DNA of 64,000 bases from Planctomycetota bacterium (GTDB lineage Bacteria > Planctomycetota > GCA-002687715 > DRQF01), in NCBI GenBank assembly GCA_020639295.1, contig JACKGY010000004.1, positions 6,348 to 70,347 on the forward strand, written 5' to 3'. Positions 13,023-52,152 of the stretch are shown here, one piece after another. The position numbers were made by a program, and so were the translations under genes. The notes beneath the pieces are model-generated. The model saw only the letters and a program-made list of their open reading frames with translations. It searched no databases and was not told the origin of the DNA. Numbering within the stretch: position 1 is the stretch's first letter; every line of letters begins with the position of its first letter.

Positions 13023-15539
13023 TCAGGGGGCGACGGAGAGTTCGACCGTATTGGTGATGGCGATGTTCTGGATCGAGCTGAAGACCAGCGACTGGAACAT
13101 GTAGGTGTTGCCGATCGTGTAGCTGGGCAGGAGCACGCTGATCTCGAGGCGACCGGCCTGGCCGATGCGGAACATCTGGTTGAGGAAGCCGGGCTGGGTG
13201 CCGTCACCGAGCACCTCCAGGTTGTAGAAGGTGGCGGTGAAGGGGTCGTAGCCGCCGATGTCGAGCTGGCCCTGGGGTGCCAGGCTGATGACGCCCGGGT
13301 TGTAGAGGCCGACCATCAGCATCACCGGCTGGAAGGGCTCGCCATCCCAGCGGAAGGTGGTCGACTGCGAGGCCCGGGCCGAGGCGAAGTAGGGGCCTCG
13401 GTAACCGCTCGCCACCGGGAAGCCGTTCGCCTCCAGCGCGCCGCCGATGTCGAATTCACCCAGGCCGAGCTGGGGACGCTGCGAGGTTCCGAAGTTGCAG
13501 TCACCGGTGAGGAGCTCGACCTCGTCGACCAGCCAGGGACCGACCGAACCGCCGGCGGTCGCGTCGTAGCGGAACCGGATCGCCGCGTCCGGGCAGCCCG
13601 CGGCGGCCGCCGTGATGTCGAGGGTCAGCTTCTCCTGCCCGGTGCTGTTGCTGAAGTTGCGCAGATGGACCGTGGTCCAGGACGATCCGTTCCAGACGTC
13701 GACCGTCTGGACCGCGTAGGCGTCGGGCAACGAGTGGAAGGTCAGAAGGACCGGCGCATTCGAGGCATCGAAGCTGGGACTGATCAGCGAGGCGTCGACG
13801 AGGTTGCCGATCGCGCCGAAGCCGCTCGAGTCGATGCTCGCGATCATGCTGTCGAGCGGCGCGACCAGCGTCGTGGGCACGTAGGGCGCGCTGGAGAATT
13901 GCCAGCCCGCGCTGATGCGGTCGTTGGCGTGTTCGAGGTGGACGAGCCAGCCCTCCGGCTGGAAGTTCGCGGCCAGATGTTCGAAGTCCTCGTGGAAGCC
14001 GCGCCAGGCCCGGCCGATCGGATGGGCGTCGATCTTGACCCGTCCGTTCACCACCGCGGGCACCGCCGAGAAGATCCCGGTCATCGGCCGGCCGGCATGC
14101 AGCGCGAGGTTGGCCGCGGAGCTGAAGACCTGACCGACCGTCGTGCCGGCGTTCGCCACCAGGAAGCTCCCCGGCATGCCCTGGATGCAGAAGCCGTCTT
14201 GCGCGCCCGGCTCGAGCACCAGGCGGAGGTTGGAGAAGCTCAGCGTGTTCTGGCCGGGAGTGAGGGTCAGCGAGCGGAAGCCGATCAGGTCCCAGTCGGC
14301 GTTCTGGCCCTCGTGACCGACCCAGGTGCCGCCGCCCTTGACGCGGTAGAGCGAGAAGCTGGCATTCACGTTCGAGCTGCTGCCGTTCCGCAGCGGAAAC
14401 TCGAAATGGTCGAGCTGGTACCAGTCGGTGGCTGAGAGATCGAAGAAGAAGCCCTCGACCGGCGTTCCCGTGCTGCCCGGATCGATGGTCAGCGACGCCG
14501 AGCTCTGCACCGTTCCGGGGCCACGACGCCGGTAGTGCAGGGCCCCGTGCAGGCGGGCCGTCGGCCCGGGCGTGGCGAAGAGGGCGCCGGCCGAACGCGG
14601 GGTCGGCAGGGTGACGAAGGGGTCGGCGACGCTCGGCTGGCCGAGCGCGCTGCCCAGCACGATCGCCGCCGAGCCCGAGGCGCATTCGATCAGGATGCCG
14701 CGGGTCGTGCCCGCGGGGACCTGGATGTCGAGGTCGAGGGGCAGCCGGGTCAGGCCGGCGCCGGTGTAGCCGGGCAGCTCGGCGGCGAGACGCCAGGCCG
14801 CGGGATCGGTCTCGTGACCGACGTGGGAGCTGAAGGTCTTCATCGTCCAGACCCGCAGGTCGGTGCTGCCGTTCTGGATCTCGATCTCGATGCCGCTGAT
14901 CACCACGTCCTCCTGGGCCTGGACGTCCAGGAGCAGGACCCGGGCCGAGCTGGCGCTGGCGTTGTCCTGACCGAGGCGGGACTCGACCTGCAGCCGGGCC
15001 GTCTGGTAGCGGACGCGGCCCTCGAAGCGCAGGTTCGAGCCCGGGTTGCTCAGGTAGTTCGCGCTCGAACGGCCGCCGCGGATCAGGAGGTCGCCGCCGT
15101 CGAGGGTGCTGCTCGCGTCGCCGGCGAGGATCCCCTGGGGATGAGTCGTGTGGACGAAGAAGCCGCGGCGCTGGTTGGCGGCCAGCGGGACGTCGATGGT
15201 CATCACCACGGTCGTGAGCTGGCCGAGACCCCGGCCCGAGACGGTCGCCGTGCCGAGGACCGTCCAGTGCTCGGGGCCGTTGCTCGGCAGATCGGCGTAG
15301 GCGAGGCCCGAGGTGGTCGTGCAGATGGTGACGTCCTGCAGGCCGCTGCGCAGGTGGAGATCGAGACCGATCACGTTCTGCGGCGCACGCGCCTCGAGGT
15401 CGAAGTAGAGGCCTTTCGCGCTTCCGGGTTCGTCACCGACGAGATTCGTGGTGATCGATTGCTGCGCGGCGAGCATCGTGCCGAGGAGGGTCGCCACCAG
15501 GAAGTAGCTGATTCGATTCATGGTCGTTCTCGTGCTCAT
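13023..15539 (-). CDS. Secreted ~840-aa protein, P family (3 internal repeats + MAM-like domain + conserved C-terminal module) (P1)
   Basis: 838-aa ORF with signal-like N-terminus (M)NRISYFLVATLLGTMLAAQQ (alternative start 15521). MAM-like block ..EDFE..PEGW..GWQF..SPSFDAS..VDVWNGSSWTTV..AIRFRYDA..WLVDEVEL. C-terminal module QRPQLGLGEFDI..WDGEPFQPVMLMVG..PQGQLDIGGYDPFTATF..FQSLVFSSIQNIAITN. Paralogs at 15667..18207, 27676..30198 and 52153..54657. Confidence 0.85.
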   Translation of the reverse strand: MSTRTTMNRISYFLVATLLGTMLAAQQSITTNLVGDEPGSAKGLYFDLEARAPQNVIGLDLHLRSGLQDVTICTTTSGLAYADLPSNGPEHWTVLGTATVSGRGLGQLTTVVMTIDVPLAANQRRGFFVHTTHPQGILAGDASSTLDGGDLLIRGGRSSANYLSNPGSNLRFEGRVRYQTARLQVESRLGQDNASASSARVLLLDVQAQEDVVISGIEIEIQNGSTDLRVWTMKTFSSHVGHETDPAAWRLAAELPGYTGAGLTRLPLDLDIQVPAGTTRGILIECASGSAAIVLGSALGQPSVADPFVTLPTPRSAGALFATPGPTARLHGALHYRRRGPGTVQSSASLTIDPGSTGTPVEGFFFDLSATDWYQLDHFEFPLRNGSSSNVNASFSLYRVKGGGTWVGHEGQNADWDLIGFRSLTLTPGQNTLSFSNLRLVLEPGAQDGFCIQGMPGSFLVANAGTTVGQVFSSAANLALHAGRPMTGIFSAVPAVVNGRVKIDAHPIGRAWRGFHEDFEHLAANFQPEGWLVHLEHANDRISAGWQFSSAPYVPTTLVAPLDSMIASIDSSGFGAIGNLVDASLISPSFDASNAPVLLTFHSLPDAYAVQTVDVWNGSSWTTVHLRNFSNSTGQEKLTLDITAAAAGCPDAAIRFRYDATAGGSVGPWLVDEVELLTGDCNFGTSQRPQLGLGEFDIGGALEANGFPVASGYRGPYFASARASQSTTFRWDGEPFQPVMLMVGLYNPGVISLAPQGQLDIGGYDPFTATFYNLEVLGDGTQPGFLNQMFRIGQAGRLEISVLLPSYTIGNTYMFQSLVFSSIQNIAITNTVELSVAP

Positions 15540-15560
15540 GGGAATGGACTTCGCGGTCGT

Positions 15561-15607
15561 GTCCGCTCACCGGGAACGCGGATTCGCGGGGTCGCGTCCG
15601 CCAGAAA
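15561..15607 (-). promoter_or_regulatory. ~46-nt block conserved with 18270..18315 (upstream of P1 and P2)
   Basis: Minus strand reads TTTCTGGCGGACGCGACCCCGCGAATCCGCGTTCCCGGTGAGCGGAC. The P2 copy reads TTTCTGGCGGATGCGGTGGCCGGAATCCGCTCGCAGGTTGACGGAC. Confidence 0.35.
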
Positions 15608-15643
15608 AAGGCGAGGCGCGCCGGGAGCTTCCCGGCGCGCCTC
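15603..15643 (-). terminator. Rho-independent terminator downstream of P2
   Basis: Minus strand reads GAGGCGCGCCGGG-AAGC-TCCCGGCGCGCCTC (13-bp stem, plus coordinates 15613-15643), followed by GCCTTTTT (T-run = plus 15605-15609). It lies 24 nt after the P2 stop. Confidence 0.7.
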
Positions 15644-15666
15644 GGCGGACCGACCTCGGGGGTTGC

Positions 15667-18207
15667 TCAGGGGTCCACCGTGAAGATCACCGGGTTCGTG
15701 ATCGCGATGTTCTGGATCGAGCTGAAGACCAGCGACTGGAAGTTGTAGGTGTTGCCGGTGGTGAAGACCGGAAGGTTGAAGGGCAATTCGAGCCGGCCGC
15801 CGGCCGGAATGCGGAACAGCTGGTTGAGGAAACCCGGCTGGGTACCGTCGCCCAGGACCTCGAGGTCGAAGAAAGTGGCGGTGAAGGGGTCGTAGCCGCC
15901 GATGTCGAGCTGCCCCTGCGGGAAGAGCTCGAAGAGTCCCGGATTCCAGACGCCGGAGAGAAGCATGACCGGCTGGTTGGGCTCGCCCTCCCAGGAGAAG
16001 ACCGCCGGCACCGACACGTTGCCCTGGGCGTAGTAGGGGCCGGGGAAGCCGCTGTTGACGCCGTAGCCGTTGGCCTCCTTGGCCTCGTTCAGGTCGAACT
16101 CGCCGATCGACAGCTGGGGTCGCTGGGCATCGCCGAAGACCAGGCCGCCGGCGAGGACGGTCACGTCGTCGAGCATCCAGTACCAGTCGTAGTCGCCCTG
16201 GTAGCGGAAGCGCAGGGCCGCGTTCGGACAGCCGGCGGCGGCCGCGGTGAGGTCGAGGCTGAGGATGCGGTCGCTCGCGGGCGAGGGCGCCATGGCGGTG
16301 TAGACCGTCACCCAGGTGCTGCCGTTCCAGACCTGGACGTCGACCCGTTCGGGGCCGTTGTAGCTGCGGTAGTACTCGGCGAAGCTCAGCACCACGGGAC
16401 CGCGGGAGGCGTCGAAGCGAGGCGAGATCAGGGCGCAGTCGATGGGGTTGCCGCTGCCCGCCCAGTCGCTGTCGGCGATGGCGAAGGTCCCGGTCAGCGT
16501 CGCCGGAACGAACCTCGACCCGGGGTTGTCCCAGCGCCAGCCGTCGGCGACGCGGTTGACGCCCCGGCGTACCTCGCTGAGCCAGCCGGAGGGCGGCACC
16601 AGTCCGGTGGCCGTCTCGAAGTCCTCGCGGAAGCCCTGCGCGGCGCTGCCGAGGGTCTGGTAGGCCACCCTCAGGTAGGGCCGGATGGCGCCGGTGGGGG
16701 TGGCGAAGCCGGTGGCGTAGCGGCCTTCGAGCACCGCCAGCCGCGAGTCGGCGAAGGAGATCGCGCCGGGAGTCGTGCCGGACGCGGCCGCGACGTTGCT
16801 GCCGCTCATCAGGATCAGGAATCCCTGCTTCTCACCGGGGGCGAGCGCCAGGGCGAGGTCCGTGGCGATGGTCTTGAGGCTAAGCCCGATCCCGATCGAC
16901 AGGTTGGTGCTCGCAACCTCGATCCAGTCGCCGGAGCTGGTCTCGTGGCCGACGTAGCTGCCGCCGCTGCGCAGGGCGTAGACCTTGCAGTTCCGCGCCA
17001 CCGGCGTCGGCGTGACGCCGAGCGTGCCGATCTCCAGCTTGCCGAGCCGGAGGAAGTCGCTGGCCTGGACATCGAAGAAGTAGCCGGGAATGACGGCGCC
17101 ACCGTTCGTGCCGGTGAGCGTGGCCGTCGTTCCCGCGCTGATCGCGTCGAGCGGCGGGTGCCGGTAGTGGACCCGGCCGGCCGGCAGCGAGGGCACGAAA
17201 TTGCCGCCGAAGACCGCGTTGCTGGCGCCGCCCGAGCGGACCGTGAGGAAGGCGTCCTGGGCCGCCACGGTGGTCGGGGCCGCCGCACCGGTACCGAGCG
17301 CGGACGCGGTCGAGCTGAGCACGGCGGTGAGCCCACGCGCGCCGCCGGCCGGCACCTGGACGTCGAGTTCGATCGGGATGCGGACCAGGCCGGGCGTGGT
17401 CACCGAGACGCCGGTGGCCCGACCGATCGGGCGCCAGGCGCCGAACTGGCCCTCGAGACCGGCACCGGAGAGGAGGCTCTTCGTGGCCCAGATCTCGATG
17501 TCGTGCTGGCCGGTACCGAGCACGAGGTCGAGCCCGGTGACGACGATCTCGGTCTCGGCCTCGAGGTCGAAGTAGATCTGGCGATTGCCGTAGGTCTGGA
17601 CCGAACCCATGGCGAGGGATTGCTGGCTCCCGAGGCTCTCCTTGCGGTAGCGGACCTGACCCTCGAAGTCGTCGCCGACCACCGGGGTCGAACCGAAGAG
17701 GCTGGCCTGACCGCGGCCGTCGCGGAGAGTGAGGCGACCATCCTGGGCGAAGACGGAGGGGCCGCCCGCGCGGGTCGGCAGGCCGTTCCCGTGGTCGCTG
17801 GTCACCAGCAGGCCGCGCTTCGAGCCGGCGGTGATCGGCAGGTCGAGCGGGAAGGTGGTGGTGAAGACCTGACCGTCATGGTCGCAGTAGACGAGGTCGC
17901 TCGCGACCAGGGTCCAGCCGGTGTTCGAGCCGAGCTGATCGCCGTGGGGGCCACCATCGCTGCGGGTCCAGATCTCGAGCCACTGCCCGCCGGCGTAGAG
18001 CGCGACGTCGAGGCCAGTGATCAGCAGGTCGTCGGTCTGCGCCTCGGCGTCGAAGGCGCAGGCCTGGTTGTTGCCGCTCACCGGATGATCGAGGGGCGTG
18101 ACCAGGACGTACTGCGCCCGGGCCAGGCCGGCGAGGAGGCACAGGACGATCAGGAACGAAAGAAGGGCGCGCGGGGGGCTCGGTCTGTGGTACGGGGGCG
18201 TGGGCAT
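15667..18207 (-). CDS. Secreted ~840-aa protein, P family (P2), tandem with P1
   Basis: 846-aa ORF with signal-like ALLSFLIVLCLLAGLARAQ. Same architecture as P1: GWRWDNPG..SPRFDAS..VQVWNGSTWVTV..ALRFRYQGDYDWYWMLDDV, then QRPQLSIGEFDLN..WEGEPNQPVMLL..PQGQLDIGGYDPFTATF..FQSLVFSSIQNIAITN. Confidence 0.85.
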   Translation of the reverse strand: MPTPPYHRPSPPRALLSFLIVLCLLAGLARAQYVLVTPLDHPVSGNNQACAFDAEAQTDDLLITGLDVALYAGGQWLEIWTRSDGGPHGDQLGSNTGWTLVASDLVYCDHDGQVFTTTFPLDLPITAGSKRGLLVTSDHGNGLPTRAGGPSVFAQDGRLTLRDGRGQASLFGSTPVVGDDFEGQVRYRKESLGSQQSLAMGSVQTYGNRQIYFDLEAETEIVVTGLDLVLGTGQHDIEIWATKSLLSGAGLEGQFGAWRPIGRATGVSVTTPGLVRIPIELDVQVPAGGARGLTAVLSSTASALGTGAAAPTTVAAQDAFLTVRSGGASNAVFGGNFVPSLPAGRVHYRHPPLDAISAGTTATLTGTNGGAVIPGYFFDVQASDFLRLGKLEIGTLGVTPTPVARNCKVYALRSGGSYVGHETSSGDWIEVASTNLSIGIGLSLKTIATDLALALAPGEKQGFLILMSGSNVAAASGTTPGAISFADSRLAVLEGRYATGFATPTGAIRPYLRVAYQTLGSAAQGFREDFETATGLVPPSGWLSEVRRGVNRVADGWRWDNPGSRFVPATLTGTFAIADSDWAGSGNPIDCALISPRFDASRGPVVLSFAEYYRSYNGPERVDVQVWNGSTWVTVYTAMAPSPASDRILSLDLTAAAAGCPNAALRFRYQGDYDWYWMLDDVTVLAGGLVFGDAQRPQLSIGEFDLNEAKEANGYGVNSGFPGPYYAQGNVSVPAVFSWEGEPNQPVMLLSGVWNPGLFELFPQGQLDIGGYDPFTATFFDLEVLGDGTQPGFLNQLFRIPAGGRLELPFNLPVFTTGNTYNFQSLVFSSIQNIAITNPVIFTVDP

Positions 18208-18269: not shown

Positions 18270-18315
18270 GTCCGTCAACCTGCGAGCGGATTCCGGCCAC
18301 CGCATCCGCCAGAAA
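18270..18315 (-). promoter_or_regulatory. ~46-nt block conserved with 15561..15607 (upstream of P2)
   Basis: See 15561..15607. It lies 63-108 nt upstream of the P2 ATG at 18207. Confidence 0.35.
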
Positions 18316-18619: not shown

Positions 18620-21600
18620 TCAGTCCTGGGAGTCGAGGATGAGGCCGAGGAGCAGCTGCCGGGCGAGGCTGCGGTCCTCGGGCGAGCGGTTGGCGTCGCG
18701 CTCGATCGTCGCCCGCGCGCCTTCCGCGCCGAGTCGTTCGAGCAGTCCGGCGACCTCCGGCTCGAACCGGAGGCGGGACCGGTTCCGCGCGGCGAGGGCG
18801 CGGGAACGCTCCGCCACGCTGACGTCGTCCCAGAGCCGCAGGCTCCGGTCGCCGCTGGCCGAGACCAGGGTCCGGCCGTCCGGAGTCCAGGCCAGCGACC
18901 AGACGTGGTCACGATGCTCGCGCAGCTGGGCCAGCTCCTCGAAGCTGTCGCCATCCCAGATCCGGATGCTGCAGTCATCCGAGCCGGAGGCCAGACGGCG
19001 GTCGTCGGGCGAGAAGGCGAGCGAATAGACCGCGGCGGTGTGGCCCACGAGCCGTCTCTCCAGGCGCCAGTCGGAGCAGCGGCGGATCTGGATCGTGCCG
19101 TCCTCGAGCCCGAGCGCGAGCCAGCGCCCGTCATGGGAGAAGGCGGCGCGACGGAGCCGCGCGGGAAGCTCGGCCTCGACATGGACCGGTTCGAGATCCG
19201 TCGTCCGGAGGACCGAGAAGCCGGTCTCGGGCAGGCCGTCGGAGAGGAAGAGCAGCGCATCCCCGGCGCCGCCGCGGGCGAACAGGCGCCCCCGGGCCGC
19301 CGTCGTGGCGAGCAGGGTCAGGTCCTCGGCCGCGAAGACCCTGAGCTCCTTCGCGTCGGCCACGAAGAGGCGTCGGCCCGCGTGGTCGAACTCGACGGCC
19401 GGGTAGCCGGCCACCTCGATCGTGCCGAGCGGCGTCATCGTTCGCGGATCGAAGACCTCGACCCGGTGGCGATTGCGTTCACCCTGACAGTCCACGGCCA
19501 GGCGGCTCGAGTCGGCGGCCATCGCCAGCTGGTAGACCACGTCATAGGTGGCGCCGGAACGCGGGATCAGGTGCCGGCCGATCACCGCGCCGGTCCGCGC
19601 GTCCCAGAAGCGGATCTGACGGTCCCAGCCGCCGGAGATGATGGTCGCGCCGCCCGGGGTGACGATCACCGGATAGACGAAGAGCTGGTGGCCGAGGAGC
19701 TGGCCCAGCGTGGTGGCCTCGCGCCAGTTCCAGACCCTGAGACCACCGCCGGCATCCTCGGAGACCAGGAGGTCGGGATCGGCGCCGAAGCGGAGGCAAC
19801 GCACCTCGCGCTCGTGACCCACCAGGGCCGCGAGCTGCTGGCCGCTTTCCAGGTCGAAGATGCGCAGGCTGCGGTCCTGCCCGGCGGTGGCCAGCAGCCG
19901 TCCGTCGGGACTGACGTCGATGTCGAAGACCTTGTCGCTGTGACCGACGCGCGTGACCCAGGGAATCTCCCGGCCATCGCGAATGTCCCAGGCCTGGACC
20001 AGGCCGTCCACCGTCGCGCTGTAGAGGCGGGGTTCCCGCGGGTGGAAGGCGAAGGCGAGGAAGTCGACCGGATTCTGCGGGTCGCCGATCTCGTGCAGGA
20101 GCTCGCCACCGCGGCGGTCCCAGATCGCGATCCGGTGGCTCTGCATTCCGCCCATGCGCGCCCCGGCGAGATGGCGTCCGTCCCGCGAGACCTCGAAGGG
20201 ACGATCGAGGGCGAGACCATCGGCCAGCGCCATCTCGGGGCCGAGATCGTAGCGGAGCACGAAGCCGTCAAGCTCCAGATCACGCGCGGCCCCGGCCCCG
20301 GCCGGTGGCTCCGCGGCCAGCTCGAACGACCGATCGGCCCGCGGATCGTCGACGTCGATGATGTCGAGCCGATGGTCGGCGGGCTGGAGGATCGCCACCC
20401 GACCATCGTCGTGGGCGACCACGTCGACCCCCAGTCCCGGAATCGGCAGGGTTCGGCGCCGGACCTCGTCGTCGTCGAGGTTCCAGACCGAGATGACGAT
20501 CGAGTCCTCGGCGCGTTCGCCGTAGACCACGCGATGGCCGTCGGCCAGGAGCCGTGGACGCATGAGTTCGCCGTGGCCAGGCGCGCGCCCGGGAAGCTGG
20601 TGGATCGAGCGGTCCAGCGCGGCCCGGAGCCGGCGCCACTCCCAGCCCCGCAGGCCGGGTTGGGTGGCGTCGAGGCGCCGGGCGGCCTCCTGGACGTCGA
20701 ACTCGCGCAGCGCCGCCTCGGCGGCGGTGATGCCCATGCGGTAGATCGCGCGCTCGACCTCGCGGGTGCGGGCCTCGGCCGCGCGCCGCTGGCGCTGCTC
20801 CTCGCGAGCGAAACGGAGCGAGATCACCAGGCCGACCACCGCGGTGAGGAAGGTCGCGGTGATGCCGGCCACCAGCACGCGGTTGCGCCTGGCGAACTTC
20901 AGGAAGTTGTAGATGGCGGAGGGCCGCCGGGCCTCGATCGGTTCGTCGGCCAGGATGTGGCGGAGGTCGCGGGCGAAGGCGTCGGCCGAGGTGTAGCGGT
21001 CTTCCCGGCTCTTCTCGAGCGCTTTCGCCACCACGATCTCGACGTCGCCGCGCAGCTCGGACTTCAGATGGCCGAGTCGCGGCGCCGTCATCTGGCAGAT
21101 GGTCCGGATGGCGCGGGCCGCCGGCATCGCATCGACCTCGTGGGGCAGGCGACCGCCGAGGATCTCGAAGGCGATCACGCCGAGGGCGTAGACGTCGGTG
21201 GGGAAGTGCAGATCGCCGGCCTTGCCCTCGAGCTGCTCCGGGCTCATGTAGGCCAGGGTGCCGACCACCTGGCCGGTGAGCGTCTCGTCGGCGCCGCGGC
21301 GATCGGCCTCGCGGGCGATGCCGAAGTCGATGATCTTCGGCCGACCGTCCCGGTCGATCAGGATGTTGCCGGGCTTGAGGTCGCGGTGGATGATGCCGCG
21401 CTGATGGGCGTGGTGGACCGCCTCGGCGATCTCGGCCAGGAGCTGCAGCCGCTGGGCGAGGTCGACCGCATGGCCGCGCACCCAGGTCCGCAGGTCCTGG
21501 CCCTCGACGTATTCCATGGTCAGGAAGGGCAGCTGGCGACCACGATGCTCGAAGGTACCGGTCTCGATCACGGTGGCGACGTTCGGATGCTGGAGTCGGG

Positions 21601-22030
21601 CGTAGACCTCGCCCTCGGTGCGGAACCGACGCAGGACGCTGGGTGAGAGGCAGGAGGGGCGGATCACCTTGATCGCCACCCGGCGATGCGGATTCTCCTG
21701 CCAGGCCTCGTAGACCAGGCCCATGCCGCCGCGGCCGATCAGCCCTTCGATGCGATAGCCAGGAATCCGGGCGGGGAGCGCCTCGTCGATCTCGTCGTCG
21801 TCGATCGGGGGCCGCGCCAGGTCCAGGACGGCCGCCAGCCGGCCGCGCTCCACCGGCGACTCGGCGAGGAAGTCCGAGTCGGCGTCCTCGACCGCGAGCA
21901 TGCGCATCACCAGGTCACGCAGCTCCTCGTCGGCGCCGGTGGCGGCCGCGACGAAGCGCGCCCGATCCGCCGCCGGGAGCTCGAGCGCCTCGAGGAAGAG
22001 ATCGCGCGCACGGCCGAAATCGGCGCTCAT
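18620..22030 (-). CDS. Ser/Thr protein kinase with TM segment and C-terminal WD40 beta-propeller repeats (K2)
   Basis: ORF 18620..22081. Kinase motifs HRDLKPGNILI, DFGIA, GTLAYMSPE. TM segment VLVAGITATFLTAVVGLVISL. WD40 units such as GHTAAVYSLAFSPDDRRLASGSDDCSIRIWD and EHRDHVWSLAWTPDGRTLVSASGDRSLRLWD. I prefer the start at ATG 22030 (MSADFGRARDLFLEAL), which overlaps the sigma stop as ATGA. Confidence 0.9.
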   Translation of the reverse strand: MSADFGRARDLFLEALELPAADRARFVAAATGADEELRDLVMRMLAVEDADSDFLAESPVERGRLAAVLDLARPPIDDDEIDEALPARIPGYRIEGLIGRGGMGLVYEAWQENPHRRVAIKVIRPSCLSPSVLRRFRTEGEVYARLQHPNVATVIETGTFEHRGRQLPFLTMEYVEGQDLRTWVRGHAVDLAQRLQLLAEIAEAVHHAHQRGIIHRDLKPGNILIDRDGRPKIIDFGIAREADRRGADETLTGQVVGTLAYMSPEQLEGKAGDLHFPTDVYALGVIAFEILGGRLPHEVDAMPAARAIRTICQMTAPRLGHLKSELRGDVEIVVAKALEKSREDRYTSADAFARDLRHILADEPIEARRPSAIYNFLKFARRNRVLVAGITATFLTAVVGLVISLRFAREEQRQRRAAEARTREVERAIYRMGITAAEAALREFDVQEAARRLDATQPGLRGWEWRRLRAALDRSIHQLPGRAPGHGELMRPRLLADGHRVVYGERAEDSIVISVWNLDDDEVRRRTLPIPGLGVDVVAHDDGRVAILQPADHRLDIIDVDDPRADRSFELAAEPPAGAGAARDLELDGFVLRYDLGPEMALADGLALDRPFEVSRDGRHLAGARMGGMQSHRIAIWDRRGGELLHEIGDPQNPVDFLAFAFHPREPRLYSATVDGLVQAWDIRDGREIPWVTRVGHSDKVFDIDVSPDGRLLATAGQDRSLRIFDLESGQQLAALVGHEREVRCLRFGADPDLLVSEDAGGGLRVWNWREATTLGQLLGHQLFVYPVIVTPGGATIISGGWDRQIRFWDARTGAVIGRHLIPRSGATYDVVYQLAMAADSSRLAVDCQGERNRHRVEVFDPRTMTPLGTIEVAGYPAVEFDHAGRRLFVADAKELRVFAAEDLTLLATTAARGRLFARGGAGDALLFLSDGLPETGFSVLRTTDLEPVHVEAELPARLRRAAFSHDGRWLALGLEDGTIQIRRCSDWRLERRLVGHTAAVYSLAFSPDDRRLASGSDDCSIRIWDGDSFEELAQLREHRDHVWSLAWTPDGRTLVSASGDRSLRLWDDVSVAERSRALAARNRSRLRFEPEVAGLLERLGAEGARATIERDANRSPEDRSLARQLLLGLILDSQD

Positions 22031-22599
22031 TCGCGGCGATCCGCGATGGCCGCGCCGAGCCAGGCCCGGGCGGCCGTCCACAACCGTTCCACGCTGCGCT
22101 TCGGCATCTCGATCAGCTCGGCGATCTCGTCCATGTTGAGGCCACCGAAGTAGCGCAGCTCGACGACCTGGGCCGACACGGCGTCCTGGGCGGCGAGCTC
22201 GCCGAGAGCCTCGTGGATGACCTCGAGGTCGTCGTTCAGGCCGGCGGCCCGGGCGACGGCCTGATCCAGGGTCACCCGCTGCCGGTCGCCGCCGCGCTTC
22301 ATCGCCTTGCGCCGTCGCGACTCGTCGACCAGCAGGTTGCGCATCACGCGGCTGCAGAAGGCGAAGAAGTGGAGCCGGTCCTTCCAGTCCACCCGGCTCT
22401 GGTCGACGAGTTCGAGGTAGAGCTCCTGGACCAGCATCGTCGGCTGCAACGTGTCGGGTCCGCGCGCCTTGAAGCAGCGGCCGGCGATGGCGCGCAGCTC
22501 GTCGTAGACCGCGGGCATCAGGGCGTCGAGGGCCTCGCGCTCGCCGGCCCGGTGCCGGCGCAGGAGACCGGTGACGTCGAATCCATCCAGGGGCTTCAT
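22027..22599 (-). CDS. ECF-type sigma factor (S2), Sigma70_ECF/TIGR02999-like, upstream of and coupled to K2
   Basis: ORF 22027..22638. Reads LLRRHRAGEREALDALMPAVYDELRAIAGR...TLQPTMLVQELYLELVD...VVELRYFGGLNMDEIAELIEMPKRSVERLWTAARAWL. Start 22599 (MKPLDG) or 22638. Confidence 0.85.
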   Translation of the reverse strand: MKPLDGFDVTGLLRRHRAGEREALDALMPAVYDELRAIAGRCFKARGPDTLQPTMLVQELYLELVDQSRVDWKDRLHFFAFCSRVMRNLLVDESRRRKAMKRGGDRQRVTLDQAVARAAGLNDDLEVIHEALGELAAQDAVSAQVVELRYFGGLNMDEIAELIEMPKRSVERLWTAARAWLGAAIADRRE

Positions 22600-27675: not shown

Positions 27676-30198
27676 TCAGTTCACGATGTCGAGGGTCACC
27701 ACGTTGGTGAGCGCGATGTTCTGGGTCGTGGAGAAGACCACGCTCTGGAAGTGGACCGTCAGCCCGATCGCGTAGGGCGGAAGGTTGAGCGGCATGGTGA
27801 GTTCGCCGGCATTCGAAGTCCGGAAGCTGGCATTCACCAGGTCGCCGGCGGTGCCATCGGCGAGCAGCAGGAGGCCCGGGAAGGTCATGGTGACCGGGTC
27901 GTAGCTGCCGATGTCGAGCTGGCCCTGCGGGTCGAGCACCACGTTGCCCAGGTTGAGGAAGCCGGCCAGCAGCTGGATCGGCTGGTTGGGCTCACCCTCC
28001 CAGTGGAAGACCGTGGGCGCGAGGATATGGGCGGTCGCCTCATAGGGGCCGGGGAGACCGCTCTTCACCGGCTGGCCGTGGAGCGCGTCGGTGGCGTTGT
28101 TGATGTCGAACTCGCCGATCTCGAGCTGCGGGCGCTGACCCTTCTGACCGATCTGCAGGTTGATGTTGTCCAGCTTCCAGTACCAGGCGTAGTTGCCCTC
28201 GTAGCGGAAGCGGACGATCGCACTCTGATAGCCGCCGGCGGCCGCGGTCAGATCGTAGGAGGAGTGCGTGGGATCGGTGGCCTGCGAGCTGGCGAAGTGG
28301 ACGATCTCGTTCCAGACCGTGCCGTCCCAGACCTCGATCCAGGCGTCGCTGGAGCTGAAGTACTGGCGGAAGTAGCCGTCGAGGTCGAGCCTGATGTCGA
28401 GGTCGCCGCTGGCGTCGAAGAGGGGGCTGTAGAGCGCGCCCGAGACGAAGTTGCCGGTACCGGACTCGTCGGTGTCGAAGATCGCGATCGGCGCCGACTG
28501 CGGCTGGTTCAGGGTCCGGTTGCCGGGGTTGTCGAAGCGCCAGCCGTCGAGCTTCGGACGGTTGCCCTCGACCAGGGCGGAGATCCAGCCGCTGGGCGGC
28601 TGGATGCCGCTGCCGCCCGAGAAGTCCTCGAAGAACCCGGAGTCGGCGCGGCCCAGCCTGCGGTAGTGGACCTGGACGTCCGGCTGGACGTAGGACACCT
28701 GCGGAATGAAGGGGTAGTCGCCGGCGGCGCCGGTGGCCATGGTCAGGGTGCCGTCGGACTTGAAGTCGCCGGAGACGTTGAAGTCCTGGGTGTAGAAGAC
28801 CGTGTTGATGGCGTTGTTGGTCGCGGTCACGTAGAGACCCTGGATGCCGCCCTCGGGAATGAACAGGCGGAGATCCTGGGCCACCTGGACGCTGCCGCCG
28901 GTGACCAGGCTGACCGGTTCGCTGCTGATGCGCGTCCACAGCGACGGCGTGCCCGCCGCACCGAGCTGCGAGCCGCCGGCGGTGAGCGCCCAGACCTCGA
29001 TCGTGTGGTTGCCGGCGTCCAGGTTGCAGTCGATCGACTCGACGACGATCGGCTTGTTGGACTTGAGGTCGAAGAAGACGCCGATGTCGAAGTACCCGAC
29101 GGTCGGCGTCCCCGAGAAGACCGAGCTGCCGCCGGGCGTGATGCCGGTGCCCTGCGACGGGATGCGGTAGTGGACGGTGCCGGCGAAGAGGCCGGCGTCC
29201 ACGGGATTGCCGAAGGACGCCGAGGCCGTGTCGTAGGCGGTCCCGCTGTGGATGTCGATGTCGCTGCCGACGGCGCGCAGCGGAGAGCCGGACGCATTCT
29301 GGCAATCGATGCCTGCCTCGACGTTCGTGACCAGGTAGAAGCCGCGCCGCTTGCCCTTCGGTACCGCCGCCTCGAACGAGAAGGGCAGCTCCTGGCTGCC
29401 CGCGTTGGCCACGACGAAGCCGTAGCGCTCGCCGATGAGGCGCCAGGCGCCGAAGCCGTGACCCGCGGTGGCGGCCGGGACGTTCGACTCGGCGACGTAG
29501 AGCTGGAGGTGGTAGACGCCGGGCTTGAGCATCGCGCTGAGACCGGTGACGACCACGTCACGGCTCTTGGCCTCGACGTCGAATTCGATCGCGTCCTCGC
29601 TGTCGTCCACCGAGGCGGCCGTGGCCAGGCTCGCGGCGCTGCCGACCGAGCTGTTGGAGAAACGGATGGCGCCGCGGAAGATCCGCGAGCTGCCGCCGGG
29701 CGTCGTCCCGCCGAAGACGCTGCCGCCGAAGGTGGCCATGCCGGCGCCCTCGTGGAGGGCCAGACCGGCGGTGACGACACTCGCGGCATCCATGTTGACG
29801 CCGTTCTCGTAGGAGAGAGTTCCGCTGGTCGTCCTCAGGTAGAAACCGGTCTTGGCGCCGGCGGGAAGGACGACGTCGAGGGGCAGCGGAAGCTGGGTCG
29901 CCTGGAGACTCGTCGTGGAGTAGACACTGACCTTGCCGAGCAGGGTCCAGGCGCCGGCGCTGCCCTGCTTGCCGATCCAGGAGCTGCCGTCGGTGACCGA
30001 CCAGACCTCGATGGTCCGAGAGCCGGGGCTGAGCATCAGGTCGAAGCCCGTGATCCGGCAGTAGCTGCTCGCGGACAGGTCGAAGAGGACGCCGCCGCTG
30101 CTGTTGTTGGAAGAACTGGGGGTCGTGAGCGTGACTTGGGAGCTCGCCGAGGCGGCGAGCAAGAGGAGGATGCCGAGGAGGCTGCCGATCCGTTTCAT
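27676..30198 (-). CDS. Secreted ~840-aa protein, P family (P3)
   Basis: 840-aa ORF with signal peptide MKRIGSLLGILLLLAASASSQ. Three ~150-170-aa repeats, each with ..FDL/FDV..ITG.D.....IEVW....W.L.G....LP......P.G...GFYL...... and ending V.Y/RF. MAM-like block GWRFDNPG..SPLFDAS..IEVWDGTVWNEI..IVRFRYEGNYAWYWKLDNI. C-terminal module QRPQLEIGEFDIN..WEGEPNQPIQLL..PQGQLDIGSYDP..FQSVVFSTTQNIALTN. Confidence 0.85.
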   Translation of the reverse strand: MKRIGSLLGILLLLAASASSQVTLTTPSSSNNSSGGVLFDLSASSYCRITGFDLMLSPGSRTIEVWSVTDGSSWIGKQGSAGAWTLLGKVSVYSTTSLQATQLPLPLDVVLPAGAKTGFYLRTTSGTLSYENGVNMDAASVVTAGLALHEGAGMATFGGSVFGGTTPGGSSRIFRGAIRFSNSSVGSAASLATAASVDDSEDAIEFDVEAKSRDVVVTGLSAMLKPGVYHLQLYVAESNVPAATAGHGFGAWRLIGERYGFVVANAGSQELPFSFEAAVPKGKRRGFYLVTNVEAGIDCQNASGSPLRAVGSDIDIHSGTAYDTASASFGNPVDAGLFAGTVHYRIPSQGTGITPGGSSVFSGTPTVGYFDIGVFFDLKSNKPIVVESIDCNLDAGNHTIEVWALTAGGSQLGAAGTPSLWTRISSEPVSLVTGGSVQVAQDLRLFIPEGGIQGLYVTATNNAINTVFYTQDFNVSGDFKSDGTLTMATGAAGDYPFIPQVSYVQPDVQVHYRRLGRADSGFFEDFSGGSGIQPPSGWISALVEGNRPKLDGWRFDNPGNRTLNQPQSAPIAIFDTDESGTGNFVSGALYSPLFDASGDLDIRLDLDGYFRQYFSSSDAWIEVWDGTVWNEIVHFASSQATDPTHSSYDLTAAAGGYQSAIVRFRYEGNYAWYWKLDNINLQIGQKGQRPQLEIGEFDINNATDALHGQPVKSGLPGPYEATAHILAPTVFHWEGEPNQPIQLLAGFLNLGNVVLDPQGQLDIGSYDPVTMTFPGLLLLADGTAGDLVNASFRTSNAGELTMPLNLPPYAIGLTVHFQSVVFSTTQNIALTNVVTLDIVN

Positions 30199-30260: not shown

Positions 30261-30278
30261 CCTCCGTCCGGAGATTTC
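30261..30278 (-). promoter_or_regulatory. Conserved motif GAAATCTCCGGACGGAGG in the divergent P3/K3 intergenic region
   Basis: Minus-strand reading, 62 nt upstream of the P3 ATG. The near-identical GAAATTCTCCGGACGAGG sits 56 nt upstream of the P4 ATG (52079-52096). It contains the inverted repeat CTCCG-GA-CGGAG. Confidence 0.35.
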
Positions 30279-30425
30279 TCGATCCCGACCGGTTCTTGAC
30301 CCGGTCTTCATCGCGAGCGGGGCCGAGTTCGGGCAAAACCGGGCTCGAAACTCGCCCTCGACCGGATGAACGTCTACGATCCCGGCTCGGCCGGGAGGTG
30401 CCCGGTCAGCTTGGGCGGGCGGAAG

Positions 30426-33448
<3,023 letters not shown>

Positions 33449-33452
<4 letters not shown>

Positions 33453-34027
33453 CCGCGACGGCGTCTCCGATCGAGGCCCGCATGCTTGCCGGCGACGACC
33501 TGGCCTTTGCCGAGCTGGCCGACCGACACGGTGGTCGGCTACGGCTGTACATCCGTCAGGTGGCCGGGCGCGCCATCGCCGCCGACAGCGACGAGGAGGA
33601 CCTCTACCAGCTCGTGGTCTTCCGGGCCTGGCAGCTCCGCGAGAGCTTCGTCCCGCGCGGGCCGGGGAGCTTCCACTCCTGGCTCGTCGCCATGGCCCGC
33701 AACGTCATCGGCGATCGGATTCGTTACCTGGCTGGCAAGGGCCGCGACGCCGGTCGTCGGGCCGTCTGCGCGGCGTCGATCGCCTCGGAGATCCCCGCGT
33801 CGATCACCTCCGTCGCCAGTCGAGCCTCGCGCCGCGAAGAGGCCGATCGCCTCGAACGCTTCCTGACCGAACTCGAGGCCGAGCAGCGGACGATCGTGGA
33901 ACTCTACTACCTCGAAGGGCTCTCTCTCGCCCAGGTGGCCGAACGCTGCGCCCGGGCACGTTCGAGCGTCTGGGAGGAGCTGCGTGACATTCTCGCCCGG
34001 ATGCGCGGCAGCCTGGGCGAGTCCTGA
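33449..34027 (+). CDS. ECF-type sigma factor (S3), coupled to K3 (ATGA overlap)
   Basis: In-frame ATG at 33449 within ORF 32924..34027; it overlaps the K3 stop (33450-33452). Reads EDLYQLVVFRAWQLRESF...WLVAMARNVIGDRIRYL...IVELYYLEGLSLAQVAERCARARSSVWEELRDILARM. Paralog of 48417..48998. Confidence 0.85.
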
Positions 34028-48416: not shown

Positions 48417-48998
48417 TCAGGCGCGGATCGCCGCCCGCAGGCGCTGGAGGACTTGCTTTGAGTCCTCCCAGACCGTCGAGCGGGCGCGGCCGGTCCGTTC
48501 GGCGACCTCGGCCAGGGACAGGCCCTCGACGTAGTAGAGCTGGATCAGCTCGCGCGCCTCGCCGTCCAGCTCGTCCATCGCCTTCTCCAGCCGATCGGTC
48601 GTCTCCCGCCGGGCCGCCCCGCTCGCGACCGAGGTGATGGAAGCGGGGATCGCCGAGGCGATGCTCGCCGCCCGGACGTAGCCCTGGCCCAACCGGCGCC
48701 CCTTGCCCTGGAGATAGCGCAGTCGTTCCCGCACCACGTTGCGCGCCAGGGCCGTCAACCAGCGGTGGAAGCCGCCGCTCTCGTCCTCGACGAAGGCGGC
48801 GCGCAGCTGCCAGGCCCGGAAGATGACCAGCTGGTGGAGGTCGTCCTCGTCCTGGTCGCCGCTCGGCAGGCCGCGCGCGAGCTGGCGGATGAACAGACGG
48901 AGGGGCAGGGCGTGGCGCTCGATCAGCTGCGCGAAGGCGGCGTCGTCACCCGCGCGCATGCGGGCGACCAGGCTCGGGTCCGGCGACGAGGCGCTCAT
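48417..48998 (-). CDS. ECF-type sigma factor (S4), coupled to K4 (ATGA overlap); paralog of S3
   Basis: In-frame ATG 48998 within ORF 48417..49454; it overlaps the K4 stop (48995-48997). Reads DDLHQLVIFRAWQLRAAF...WLTALARNVVRERLRYL...LIQLYYVEGLSLAEVAERTGRARSTVWEDSKQVLQRL. Confidence 0.85.
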   Translation of the reverse strand: MSASSPDPSLVARMRAGDDAAFAQLIERHALPLRLFIRQLARGLPSGDQDEDDLHQLVIFRAWQLRAAFVEDESGGFHRWLTALARNVVRERLRYLQGKGRRLGQGYVRAASIASAIPASITSVASGAARRETTDRLEKAMDELDGEARELIQLYYVEGLSLAEVAERTGRARSTVWEDSKQVLQRLRAAIRA

Positions 48999-51946
48999 CG
49001 CCCGCGCGCCAGGTAAGGGATGTTCATCACCGGCCGCACGCCGATGTTCCCGTCCGGTGACTGGGCGTCCGTGCCGATGCGGGCGGCCGAGCGTGCGTCG
49101 TTCATGGTGTAGGCGAAGGCGCCGCCGCGGAAGATCCGCAGGGTGTCGTTGCTGCTGAACAGCCGCAGGCCGTCGCCTGGGCGGACCGGCCGGTCGTAGT
49201 AGCCGAAACGATCGAGACACCACTCGTAGACGTTGCCGTAGGTGTCGTGGAGACCCCAGGGATTCGGCAGGTAGGAACCGACCGGGGCATGCAGGGCGTA
49301 ACCGTCGTCGAAGTCGCCGAGCCCGCCGTTCTGCTTCTCCCCCGTGAGCCCGGCATGGGCCAGGTCCGTGACGTTGACGCGACCCTTCGCGCCCTCGACG
49401 TCGTCGCCGAAGCTCCAGATCGTGTCCGTCCCCGCGCGGGCCAGGCACTCCCACTGCGCCTCCGTCGGCAGGTCGAGCCCGAAGTGCCCGAGGACGTCTA
49501 CGGCCTCGAACCAGGACAGATACTCGACCGGGTTCCTGGGGGTCACGAACTCGCCCTTGCGGGATTCGTCGCCGATCTTGATGGATGAGGGATTCCGGCC
49601 CGCCAGGTGGATCCAGGCGGCCTGCCAGGCCTCGTACTTCGAGGCCAGGAAGGGATCGAGCACGACCTGGTGGCGCGGGCCCTCGTAGTCGCGCGCCATC
49701 GGATCGTAATGCGGCTTGCCCGGCTCCAGGACGCTGCCCATCGTGAACGCGCCACCCGGCACGAGCACGAAGATGAGGCCGCAGTCCGGGTCGAGCGCCG
49801 GCAGGCGACCCTCGGCGTCGCGCTTCGGGACTTCCTTCTGCTCGTGCGACAGGAAGTGCAGGAACTCCTGGAGTCCCGAGTCCGGATCACGACCGAGCGG
49901 CACGAGGCCGGTGATCGGCCGCAGCTCGAAGCCGGCGAAGCGTCGGTCCGCGGCGAGTTCCTCACCCGCGCGGCGCCAGGCCTCGACGTGGCCTTCGATG
50001 GTGTCGGCGACCAGCGATTCGGCCGCGGCCATGCGCGCCCGCACGCCGGCGAGCAGCCCCGTGCCATCCTCGGGATCGATCCGCGCGATCTGGGCCACGA
50101 GGTGGCGGAGGACCTCGGCCCGCCAGGCGTCGGCCGCCTCGGGGTAGCTGGAATTCTCCAGCCTCGCGACCAGGGCCTCGTAGGCCTTGATGCGCGGGGA
50201 AAGGAGCTCGCTCACGACGCCCTGCGCGGCCTTCGCGGTCCCGCCTTGGAGGCCGGCCCGGCCGTCCTCGTAGGTCTTCAGCTGGTCGCGCATGCGTTCG
50301 AGCTCGGCCCACTCGTGGGGGAGCGCCGCGGCGATCGCGGCCTGGTCGAGCGGGATCTTGCGCTCGAGCAGGGCGGCCAGACCGGTCTCGTGCCGCGCGC
50401 GGCGTCGGAGGAGCTCCTCGGCCCGGTTCAGCCAGTCCCGCATGCGCGGCAAGGTCTCGGGAGCGACCGGCCAGAGCGAGCTCTCCTCGGCGACGAGATC
50501 GTTGGCCTTCTTCACGTCGGAGAGGACCAGCACCTCGTCGAGCGCGCTGGCCAGGCTGTCGCCACGTTCGACCGCCTCCTGCCGCAGCCGGTCGATCCGA
50601 CGCTTGCCCAGCGCGGTCGAGATCGAGAATGCGGTGAGCGTCGCCAGGACGAGGAGACCCAGCGTCGCGACGACGGCGTTGCGCCGGTACCAGCGCAGGG
50701 CCTTGGTCGCTCCGCCGACCGGGCGGACCGACACGGTCTCGCCGCGGCGCAGCCGACCGAGATCCTCGGCCAGGTCGGCGGCCGAACGGTAGCGGCGCTG
50801 CGGCTCGAGTTCCATCGCCGTGGCCACGACGACGGCGAGGTCGCGGCCGATGCCGGCCTGGGCGCGGTCGAGGGGCGTGGCGTCGCCGCGCAGGACCCGA
50901 CGGAAGAGCTCCTCGATCGTGGGCGCCTCGAAGGGCCGACGTCCGGACAGGAGTTCGTAGGCCGTGATGCCGAGGGCGTAGACGTCCTCGGTCGGGGCCG
51001 CCTCGAGCTTCGGATGCCGGAGGCGCTCGGGGGCGATGTAGGCCGGAGTGCCCAGGACGTCCAGGCTCGCGGTCAAGCTCGGCCCCTGATCGTCGAGGAT
51101 CTTGGCCAAGCCGAAGTCGAGGAGCACCGGCGAACCGTCCTCGCGGAGCATCACGTTGCCCGGCTTCAGATCCCGGTGGACGACGCCGGCCGCGTGTGCG
51201 GTCTCGAGCGCGCGCGCCACCTGTTCGAGGATCTCGAGCCGGCGCTCGATCTCCTGACGATCGAGCCGGTCGCCGGAGCGGCCCTCCTGGATCAGCTGGG
51301 TCAGGCTGCTGCCGGATACCAGCTCCATGGCGATGAAGGGCTGCCCGTTGTCGACGCCGGCCTCGAAGATCTTGCCGATGCCCGGGTGCGACAGCCGCGA
51401 GACCGCGCGGGCCTCGCGCTTGAAGCGTTCCAGACCACGATCATCGAGCGCGGCGCCGAGGTGGAAGACCTTGAGCGCGACCTTCCGGCCCAGCTTGACG
51501 TCGACCGCGCGATGGACGGTCGCCTGGCCACCGCGGCCGAGCGTCTCTTCGCAGCGGTAGGTGGCGACCTGCCCGGCGCCGGCGTCGGCGGCGCCGCGGC
51601 TCCCCGACACCAGGGCCAGATAGCAGCGCGCGACCTCCTCGACCGCCCCGGGGAACTCCGCCAGATAGTCCGCGAGGCTCCGGTCCCGGTCCTCGGCCCG
51701 GTCGCGCCAGTAGGCGTCGAGGAAGGCGGCCACCGAGCGCGCGGCGGGGTCCTCGTCGCGGGCTCCGATCGGCTCCTCGCCGAGATCGAGCTCCTCCGGC
51801 CGACCGCCGCGGAGCTCCAGCATCTCGTCGAATTCGCGCCGCTGCGCGGGTGTGAGGGCTCGGTACTCGGACCCGACGCGGCCCCCGTCAAGGGCGCGCT
51901 GCAGGAGGTCGTCGAGGTGGTCGAAGTCGAGATCGTCGGCGCTCAT
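48995..51946 (-). CDS. Ser/Thr protein kinase with TM, coiled-coil and C-terminal FGE-sulfatase-type domain (K4); paralog of K3
   Basis: 983-aa ORF. Kinase motifs HRDLKPGNVML, DFGLA, GTPAYIAPE. TM segment VVATLGLLVLATLTAFSI. FGE-sulfatase-like motifs LPTEAQWECLARAG, GNVYEWCLD, RIFRGGAF. Co-linear with K3 along its whole length (about half or more of residues identical by eye). Confidence 0.9.
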   Translation of the reverse strand: MSADDLDFDHLDDLLQRALDGGRVGSEYRALTPAQRREFDEMLELRGGRPEELDLGEEPIGARDEDPAARSVAAFLDAYWRDRAEDRDRSLADYLAEFPGAVEEVARCYLALVSGSRGAADAGAGQVATYRCEETLGRGGQATVHRAVDVKLGRKVALKVFHLGAALDDRGLERFKREARAVSRLSHPGIGKIFEAGVDNGQPFIAMELVSGSSLTQLIQEGRSGDRLDRQEIERRLEILEQVARALETAHAAGVVHRDLKPGNVMLREDGSPVLLDFGLAKILDDQGPSLTASLDVLGTPAYIAPERLRHPKLEAAPTEDVYALGITAYELLSGRRPFEAPTIEELFRRVLRGDATPLDRAQAGIGRDLAVVVATAMELEPQRRYRSAADLAEDLGRLRRGETVSVRPVGGATKALRWYRRNAVVATLGLLVLATLTAFSISTALGKRRIDRLRQEAVERGDSLASALDEVLVLSDVKKANDLVAEESSLWPVAPETLPRMRDWLNRAEELLRRRARHETGLAALLERKIPLDQAAIAAALPHEWAELERMRDQLKTYEDGRAGLQGGTAKAAQGVVSELLSPRIKAYEALVARLENSSYPEAADAWRAEVLRHLVAQIARIDPEDGTGLLAGVRARMAAAESLVADTIEGHVEAWRRAGEELAADRRFAGFELRPITGLVPLGRDPDSGLQEFLHFLSHEQKEVPKRDAEGRLPALDPDCGLIFVLVPGGAFTMGSVLEPGKPHYDPMARDYEGPRHQVVLDPFLASKYEAWQAAWIHLAGRNPSSIKIGDESRKGEFVTPRNPVEYLSWFEAVDVLGHFGLDLPTEAQWECLARAGTDTIWSFGDDVEGAKGRVNVTDLAHAGLTGEKQNGGLGDFDDGYALHAPVGSYLPNPWGLHDTYGNVYEWCLDRFGYYDRPVRPGDGLRLFSSNDTLRIFRGGAFAYTMNDARSAARIGTDAQSPDGNIGVRPVMNIPYLARGR

Positions 51947-52078: not shown

Positions 52079-52096
52079 GAAATTCTCCGGACGAGG
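52079..52096 (+). promoter_or_regulatory. Conserved motif GAAATTCTCCGGACGAGG in the divergent K4/P4 intergenic region
   Basis: 56 nt upstream of the P4 ATG; counterpart of 30261-30278. The downstream leaders also resemble each other: GCAACCAAACCCCTTCGGAGA versus GAACCAGAAACCCCCACACCGGAGA. Confidence 0.35.
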
Positions 52097-52152
52097 CGGG
52101 CTTCGCGGCCCTTGGTCTCGTGTCCGCAACCAAACCCCTTCGGAGACCCCCC

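Follow-up and report, generated by a model that had tools for sequence, protein, structure and literature searches.

Proteins recognised by the NCBIfam choice-of-anchor J model (choice_anch_J, NF038128) are mostly cargo of Bacteroidota's type IX secretion system (T9SS). At the level of regulation, Ser/Thr kinases are an established means of controlling extracytoplasmic function (ECF) sigma factors (PMC7826278), and WD40 and sulfatase-modifying-enzyme domains located in the periplasm are a typical feature of the single-pass kinases of planctomycetes (PMC11032199). Examination of a stretch of 64,000 nucleotides (nt) from a Planctomycetota bacterium (assembly GCA_020639295.1, contig JACKGY010000004.1, positions 6,348 to 70,347 of the forward strand), hereafter called the window and numbered from its own first letter, revealed four paralogous genes, P1 to P4. 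The P family comprises predicted exported multi-sandwich proteins of the choice-of-anchor type; what is new about it is the presence of two domains matched by no Pfam or NCBIfam model and a previously unremarked regulatory cassette. Each P locus adjoins a gene for a single-pass Ser/Thr kinase and a gene for an ECF sigma factor, which were absent from a preliminary description of the same DNA made from the sequence alone.

Four paralogs with a predicted export signal

A tblastn comparison of P1 to P3 with the window returned exactly four full-length copies (E values from 4e-86 to 0, 31-51% identity), which confirms the four-copy family of the preliminary description; the interval that it gave, 13023-18207, takes in P1 and P2 only. 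P1 (13023..15539, minus strand) encodes 838 amino acids (aa) with a signal peptide, three repeats (R1 to R3), a choice-of-anchor J/MAM-like domain (CAJ) and a C-terminal module (CT). Its start may instead be the ATG at 15521, and its database form is P0003 (832 aa). P2 (15667..18207, minus strand, 846 aa) is identical to a protein from a Planctomycetes metagenome-assembled genome (MAG) that already bears the name 'choice-of-anchor J domain-containing protein' at NCBI. P3 lies at 27676..30198 on the minus strand (840 aa) and P4 at 52120..54657 on the plus strand (845 aa as an open reading frame, ORF), where the ATG at 52156 (MKHVALF...) is probably the true start in preference to the GTG at 52120, giving a protein of 833 aa. 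All four P ORFs have a coding-type composition, with a GC content at third codon positions of 0.92-0.94 in a window of about 70% GC.

Each P protein contains five beta-sandwich modules: three copies of the repeat R (about 160 aa), one CAJ and one CT (about 155 aa). In P2, all on the minus strand, R1 was located at 17629..18111 (aa 33-193) by repeat profile and alignment, its PHR-like jelly-roll fold being taken from the model of P3 R1. It is followed by R2 at 17146..17628 (aa 194-354) and R3 at 16645..17145 (aa 355-521), both by repeat-profile match, by CAJ at 16135..16644 (aa 522-691) and by CT, an Ig-like beta-sandwich, at 15670..16134 (aa 692-846). Mean column identity in the four-way alignment of P1-P4 is 59%, and conservation climbs toward the C-terminus.

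A Pfam scan gave no match in any of the four copies and NCBIfam sees the choice-of-anchor J block alone, in agreement with the earlier view that no curated family covers the whole protein; no catalytic domain was detected by either database. Word-indexed homolog searches brought back only the query itself and three fragments. A search of PDB sequences with a full-length P profile gave no meaningful match, and a match to an adenine deaminase (E 1.7e-4) was dismissed, as it covers a linker-like stretch. Neither the repeats nor CT mapped cleanly onto a characterised family. The motifs listed in the preliminary description proved essentially right, with small deviations such as GWQFSSAP in P1 in the place of GW.[FW]DNPG, and VWDGTVW in P3.

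P2, P3 and P4 begin with hydrophobic h-regions ending in A|Q, which fit Sec signal peptides. The N-terminal segment of P1 stays under the scanning-window threshold used, and the only segment flagged in that protein is a marginal one (residues 281-300, score 1.67). No other strong transmembrane segment and no C-terminal transmembrane helix were found in P1-P4 by the hydrophobicity scan, and the secretion proposed earlier is thus upheld, with P1 below threshold. P1-P4 are therefore predicted to be Sec-exported, with no detectable catalytic domain. A lipoprotein nature was ruled out, as there is no lipobox and Leu precedes Cys in the signal peptides of P2 and P4. Gln occupies position +1 in five of six predicted cleavage sites among P1-P4, P0004 and P0006 (A|QY, S|QV, A|QQ), the cut being less clear in P1 (AAQ|QS). 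The N-terminal Gln of the mature proteins could cyclise to pyroglutamate. A Gln at +1 recalls the 'Q-rule' reported for exported proteins of Bacteroidetes.

At the other end, the proteins terminate in ...TNxVxxxV(x)P/N/E. Sortase-type tripartite tags consist of a short motif, then a C-terminal transmembrane helix, then a basic tail; no NCBIfam model of such tags (LPXTG, PEP-CTERM, MYXO-CTERM, IPTL-CTERM) matched P1-P4, nor did the T9SS type A domain (TIGR04183 / PF18962). Together with the lack of a C-terminal helix, this bears out the statement that no recognisable sorting tag is present.

Repeat, choice-of-anchor and C-terminal modules

The repeats are visible to profiles only, a BLAST self-comparison having shown no off-diagonal matches. 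A hidden Markov model (HMM) of repeat 1 matches repeats 2 and 3 in every paralog with 26-71 bits, and an HMM of any single repeat recovers the other two in each paralog, mostly with 12-71 bits and with one pairing near zero. The 12 repeats of the window align on FD..A / I.G.D / E.W / AW.L.G / P..LD..PAG..RGFY / G.V.Y, so that the three internal repeats described earlier, and their motif, are well founded. A model of P3 R1, based on the alignment of these 12 repeats, is a jelly-roll of pLDDT 87.7 and pTM 0.86. Its best Foldseek matches in the PDB are PHR domains: 3gbw (E 1.9e-5, TM-score 0.56), 3no8 (TM-score 0.58) and 3hwj. These three top matches, with TM-scores of 0.50-0.58 and root-mean-square deviations of 5-7 Å, indicate a shared general fold and do not by themselves prove homology; weak matches to CBM35, meprin and phage-fibre jelly-rolls come after them. 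The MYCBP2 and BTBD2 PHR structures come from Sampathkumar et al. 2010 (cited in PMC4806438). At the sequence level, R could be placed in no family of Pfam (45 diverse R sequences) or NCBIfam and gave no PDB match, and the PHR domain PF08005 is absent from the 25 listed of the 27 Pfam families matched by the 45 sequences at E ≤ 1. The modelled fold of R is thus PHR-like, a resemblance at fold level only.

The CAJ block shows 33-56% pairwise identity across P1-P4. P2 scores 34.2 bits with NF038128 (cut-off 30) over model positions 2-162 of 162, P4, with 18.8 bits, falls short of the cut-off, and neither P1 nor P3 reaches the reporting level. A profile made from the four paralogs recovers CAJ proteins by the hundreds. 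None of P1-P4 matches Pfam MAM (PF00629) at E ≤ 1, although relatives exceed its gathering score (26.4 bits) at the homologous position: P0008 with 40 bits and proteins from loci L004, L006 and L031 with 37-46 bits. The earlier call of a MAM/choice-of-anchor-like block was right, because the CAJ position passes Pfam MAM in relatives and P2 passes NF038128.

CT is the best-conserved part of P1-P4, with a mean column identity of 74%. Among seven full-length members, mean pairwise identity rises from 27-29% in R1-R3 to 42% in CAJ and 57% in CT, values which indicate that the N-terminal array is diversifying while the CT tail is constrained. Three polar residues of CT, D82, Q138 and N152, are invariant. 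CT matches no family in Pfam or NCBIfam, and a profile of 44 CT sequences found nothing in the PDB; the signature C-terminal module of the preliminary description is therefore real and unmatched in these three databases. A model built from 7 sequences is all-beta and of moderate quality (pLDDT 70), and comparison of this model with known structures by Foldseek returned only generic Ig-like sandwiches (SoxZ, macroglobulin MG domains, FN3; E ≥ 3e-3, TM-score < 0.5). Several origins of the module were tried and rejected. A copy of R or of CAJ is dismissed by hhalign (0.2% for CT-R, 0.6% for CT-CAJ), as is a relationship of R with CAJ (4%). A MATH/TRAF-like partner of MAM in the style of meprins found no Foldseek match of that kind, and CT has no invariant Lys or Thr that would make it an isopeptide or ester-bond domain.

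An exhaustive HMMER search with the four-paralog profile against 1.84 billion cluster representatives gave 4533 matches at E ≤ 1e-3, and the module HMMs were mapped on the best 150 of them. Forty-four of these 150 representatives carry CT, in every case with its end no more than a few residues from the C-terminus. The full R3-CAJ-CT architecture is limited among the 150 to five representatives, P0001 (P2), P0003 (P1), P0004, P0005 and P0006, and one fragment, P0007; among members with an organism name, it was found in Planctomycetota only. About 40 further architectures, most of them shorter, also contain CT, and the module types are thus not exclusive to the P family: besides R3-CAJ-CT there are R-CT (about 350 aa), CAJ-CT (about 355 aa), and R-x-CAJ-CT and CAJ-x-CT (about 650 aa). 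R alone, in 2-5 copies, and CAJ alone are widespread in other proteins, giant ones included. Among the 106 proteins with R or CAJ and without CT, 50 end in a T9SS type A sorting domain, as in P0023, where three R copies are followed by Por_Secre_tail; single cases have MYXO-CTERM, IPTL-CTERM or rhombosortase-type tails.

All CT proteins with an organism name come from Planctomycetota MAGs (P2, P0005, P0039, the P0034 cluster and L001), and L005 also has the planctomycete cytochrome gene PSCyt1. The 90%-identity clusters looked up are mostly single-member, none exceeding five. A scan of 185,579 species, one genome each, found a single partial locus, again in a Planctomycetota MAG, and a metagenome scan for GQAPQPGLA gave 72 loci with 5 real CT genes, in which the passengers are once more R or MAM. 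CT genes often stand in tandem, as in P2-P1 and in loci L004 (two), L005 (three or four) and L006 (two).

Kinase and sigma factor genes beside the P genes

Upstream of P2 and P1, and on their strand, stand an ECF sigma factor gene (PF07638; 22027..22638, minus strand) and, directly before P2, a Ser/Thr kinase gene (18620..22081, minus strand); the sigma gene overlaps the start of the kinase gene. This kinase combines a single transmembrane helix (aa 401-425) with a WD40 propeller outside the cytoplasm. On the far side of a 167-bp spacer from P3, and divergent from it, is a Ser/Thr kinase gene (30366..33452, plus strand) for a protein with a transmembrane helix and an FGE-sulfatase-type domain, directly followed by an ECF sigma factor gene (33449..34027, plus strand; start approximate). 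The arrangement beside P4 is similar: P4 and a kinase gene of the same domain content (48995..51946, minus strand) are oriented divergently on either side of a 173-bp spacer, and the stop codon of this kinase gene is overlapped by an ECF sigma factor gene (48417..48998, minus strand). Both of these sigma genes (48417-48998 and about 33449-34027) overlap the stop codon of the upstream kinase, and a plain ORF list hides them in longer spurious ORFs (48417-49454 and 32924-34027). One strong transmembrane helix follows the kinase domain in all P-adjacent kinases, and the FGE-type and WD40 domains are therefore expected to be extracytoplasmic.

ECF sigma-Ser/Thr kinase gene pairs thus number three in the window, and there is one in locus L003 (52% GC), where the ortholog P0004 likewise adjoins sigma and kinase genes, though their orientation differs. 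Identity between the P3 and P4 cassettes is 51% for P, 53% for the kinase and 60% for sigma, and between the L003 and P4 cassettes 51%, 49% and 57%, respectively. By these comparisons the P, kinase and sigma genes form a trio that has diverged in parallel, at about 50-60% identity, in the two window cassettes and L003. A fourth window kinase (1580-4699, minus strand) shares just 34% identity with those of the cassettes and lacks a P neighbour. In all, the 64 kb encode four single-pass Ser/Thr kinases, of which three have FGE-sulfatase-type C-terminal ectodomains and one has WD40, an unusually high density of signalling genes.

A conserved element precedes P3 (AAATCTCCGGACGGAGG, 30261..30277, minus strand, 67 nt before the ATG) and P4 (AATTCTCCGGACGAGGC, 52081..52097, plus strand, 63 nt before ATG 52156), and the ortholog copy lies upstream of P0004 (L003 3064-3080, plus strand). 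With up to 3 mismatches allowed, the only window matches to this 17-nt ortholog copy, ATTTCTCCGGACAAAGG, are those that precede P3 and P4, in coding orientation and 62-67 nt before the start codons, against a chance expectation of 0.51 per window. The consensus of the P3, P4 and P0004 copies is (A/T)AT(T)TCTCCGGAC(R)(R)AGG, and the TTCTCCGGAC-bearing element is a candidate ECF-type promoter or operator. The spacing of 62-67 nt from element to start favours ATG 52156 as the start of P4. P1 and P2 share a different sequence, at 15593..15607 (TTTCTGGCGGACGCG, minus strand) upstream of P1 and at 18301..18315 (TTTCTGGCGGATGCG, minus strand) upstream of P2; the exact 15-mer common to the two is TTTCTGGCGGAYGCG, followed by GAATCCGC. 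Between P2 and P1, a hairpin resembling an intrinsic terminator, with a 15-bp stem and a T-run, occupies 15612..15644 on the minus strand.

Intergenic DNA of the window also harbors a repeat family, at 18417-18603, 34035-35125 and 62173-62521. The plus strand carries all 11 copies of its 23-mer core, GCCAGCCGCTGGCTGGCCTAGTC, where chance would give 0, and the copies lie in tandem arrays whose periods are 100, 163 and 231 bp. The array at 34035-35125 fills a 1.2-kb ORF-free gap after the sigma gene on the P3 side, and another lies between the WD40 kinase gene and P2. The repeats have a hairpin-rich composition reminiscent of repetitive extragenic palindromes or miniature inverted-repeat transposable elements (REP/MITE-like) and no Rfam match; Rfam and tRNA scans of the window found nothing.

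Among the other genes of the window, that at 35252-37759 (minus strand, 835 aa) encodes a protein with an ECF sigma factor at its N-terminus (regions 2 and 4), a transmembrane segment and an extended extracytoplasmic portion bearing CarboxypepD_reg-like domains, which looks like a one-polypeptide sigma/anti-sigma-like fusion. Two paralogous surface-protein genes with FG-GAP/VCBS repeats and Big_1/CarboxypepD_reg domains lie at 10279-12894 and 43471-45786 (plus strand), one of them convergent with P1; in L003 an FG-GAP gene also adjoins the kinase gene. A HEAT-repeat/VWA protein is encoded downstream of P4 (54866..56986, plus strand), a downstream gene common to P4 and the P homolog of L001. 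Three genes at 26168-27652 (minus strand), 22659-24101 and 24114-26159 (both plus strand), coding for 494, 480 and 681 aa, have no Pfam match. A gap of 23 bp separates P3 from the 494-aa gene that follows it, and the two may be co-transcribed; the 494-aa product carries a hydrophobic segment at its N-terminus. Finally, a 487-aa protein encoded at 5231-6694 (plus strand), divergent from the kinase gene 1580-4699, contains a collagen triple-helix repeat (Pfam Collagen, E 7e-8).

Proposed role and comparison with known systems

Our findings tentatively suggest, with a confidence a little short of even, that P1-P4 are exported non-catalytic binding proteins with a conserved CT localisation tail, and that they are the output of the adjacent kinase/sigma pairs. 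The variable R/CAJ array would be the ligand- or surface-binding part, adhesin- or lectin-like, and CT would be a common tail that docks on one conserved envelope partner and so localises or anchors the protein. T9SS or sortase-type sorting domains sit, in relatives from other phyla, in the slot that CT would fill here, and such a role matches the 'choice-of-anchor' idea that the NCBIfam name expresses. The P genes would represent a dedicated output of the ECF sigma factors controlled by the adjacent kinases, and P proteins may possibly also be extracytoplasmic partners of these kinases.

Several observations weigh against this proposal. Its weakest step is the role given to CT, with narrow passengers, a biased sample and no tie to any machinery. 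The passengers are limited to R, CAJ/MAM and regions without assigned identity; general sorting domains carry many unrelated cargoes, enzymes among them. The sample of passengers is itself biased toward R/CAJ because the search profile contained these modules, and what is seen of the phyletic range of CT comes from a handful of MAGs that bear a name. The most conserved motif of CT, the invariant GQLDIG, sits in a low-confidence loop of the model, the module has no specific fold relative (best Foldseek E 3e-3, TM-score < 0.5), and a divergent T9SS domain was rejected, since hhalign gave a probability of 0.9% against a profile of 47 T9SS tails. On the regulatory side, the genomes are kinase-dense (4 kinases in 64 kb), the distant member P0006 (L002) and the CT proteins of about 650 aa (L004-L006) have no kinase/sigma neighbour, and, as the P3, P4 and L003 cassettes derive from one ancestor, the independent associations number only about two.

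Some of these points recur in other readings of the locus. MAM/CAJ directly precedes CT in most architectures, which, with the narrow passenger range of CT, would suit a module that is the functional partner of the preceding MAM/CAJ domain, in oligomerisation or ligand binding, and owes its terminal position to an inherited MAM-CT unit; the invariant polar residues D82, Q138 and N152 could then form a binding site. We regard this as rather unlikely, as short R-CT proteins of about 350 aa have no MAM/CAJ at all, and CT is markedly more conserved than all other modules, a better fit to a single common partner than to diversified ligands. The parallel divergence of the P, kinase and sigma trio, the presence of a kinase paralog for each P paralog, and the extracytoplasmic compartment shared by P and the kinase sensor domains (PMC11032199) would also be compatible with P as a co-sensor for signal input, capturing a ligand and binding the FGE-type or WD40 domain of the kinase, and not merely a regulated output. 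Parallel divergence is however equally expected of a regulator and its target, and P1 has no kinase of its own, nor P0006 a kinase neighbour, so that this role is improbable in our estimate.

The adjacency itself could be a coincidence in a kinase-rich genome, P being constitutive secreted proteins duplicated along with their neighbours. The four kinases in 64 kb, the segmental duplication from which the P3/P4 cassettes come and the kinase-free loci L002 and L004-L006 would all agree with it, yet the trio is kept at about 50% identity, through rearrangement, in a genome of 52% against 70% GC, P2/P1 too are preceded by a sigma and a kinase, the latter of a second and unrelated type (WD40), and the upstream element is conserved. 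We consider such a coincidence very unlikely. A bolder extension of our tentative reading of P1-P4 as anchored binding proteins, which we hold to be a distant prospect, would make CT a functional analogue of the T9SS C-terminal domain, serving recognition or anchoring in a planctomycetal sorting route for surface proteins that has yet to be described, with the GQxPQxG boundary motif as a possible processing site and the P/kinase/sigma trios as surface signalling units in which P is both sensor partner and induced product.

R and CT constitute two domain families with no Pfam or NCBIfam model, R being widespread in T9SS cargo and CT so far found in Planctomycetota only. CT offers a concrete lead on the localisation of surface proteins in that phylum, and the P/kinase/ECF sigma cassette a candidate output and promoter element for its kinase-linked ECF sigma factors.

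As in the planctomycetal ECF sigma/kinase pairs already described, the sigma genes of the window adjoin genes of single-pass kinases with periplasmic domains of the WD40 or sulfatase-modifying-enzyme type; the co-diverging gene for a secreted protein attached to them sets the window apart, none being mentioned in the cited literature (PMC11032199, PMC7826278). R is a beta-sandwich of the same size as the PHR domains of MYCBP2/Highwire/RPM-1 and BTBD1/2 (3gbw, 3hwj, 3no8), which in contrast belong to eukaryotic intracellular proteins and share just 8-18% aligned identity with it. The MAM domain (PF00629) of meprins and receptor phosphatases has its counterpart at the homologous position in the relatives of P that pass the Pfam threshold, in a bacterial context and with no protease or receptor part. 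The P proteins are closest in overall design to the choice-of-anchor J proteins, with which they have in common a homologous CAJ jelly-roll, a signal peptide, non-enzymatic passengers made of several beta-sandwiches and a dedicated C-terminal domain. They differ in that this domain is the terminal CT of about 155 aa instead of a T9SS, PEP-CTERM or LPXTG tag. Although CT is about twice as long as the T9SS sorting domain and has no sequence or profile similarity to it, the two have in common an Ig-like beta-sandwich fold and a place at the very C-terminus of exported proteins, and in other phyla it is the T9SS domain that is carried by the same R and CAJ passengers.

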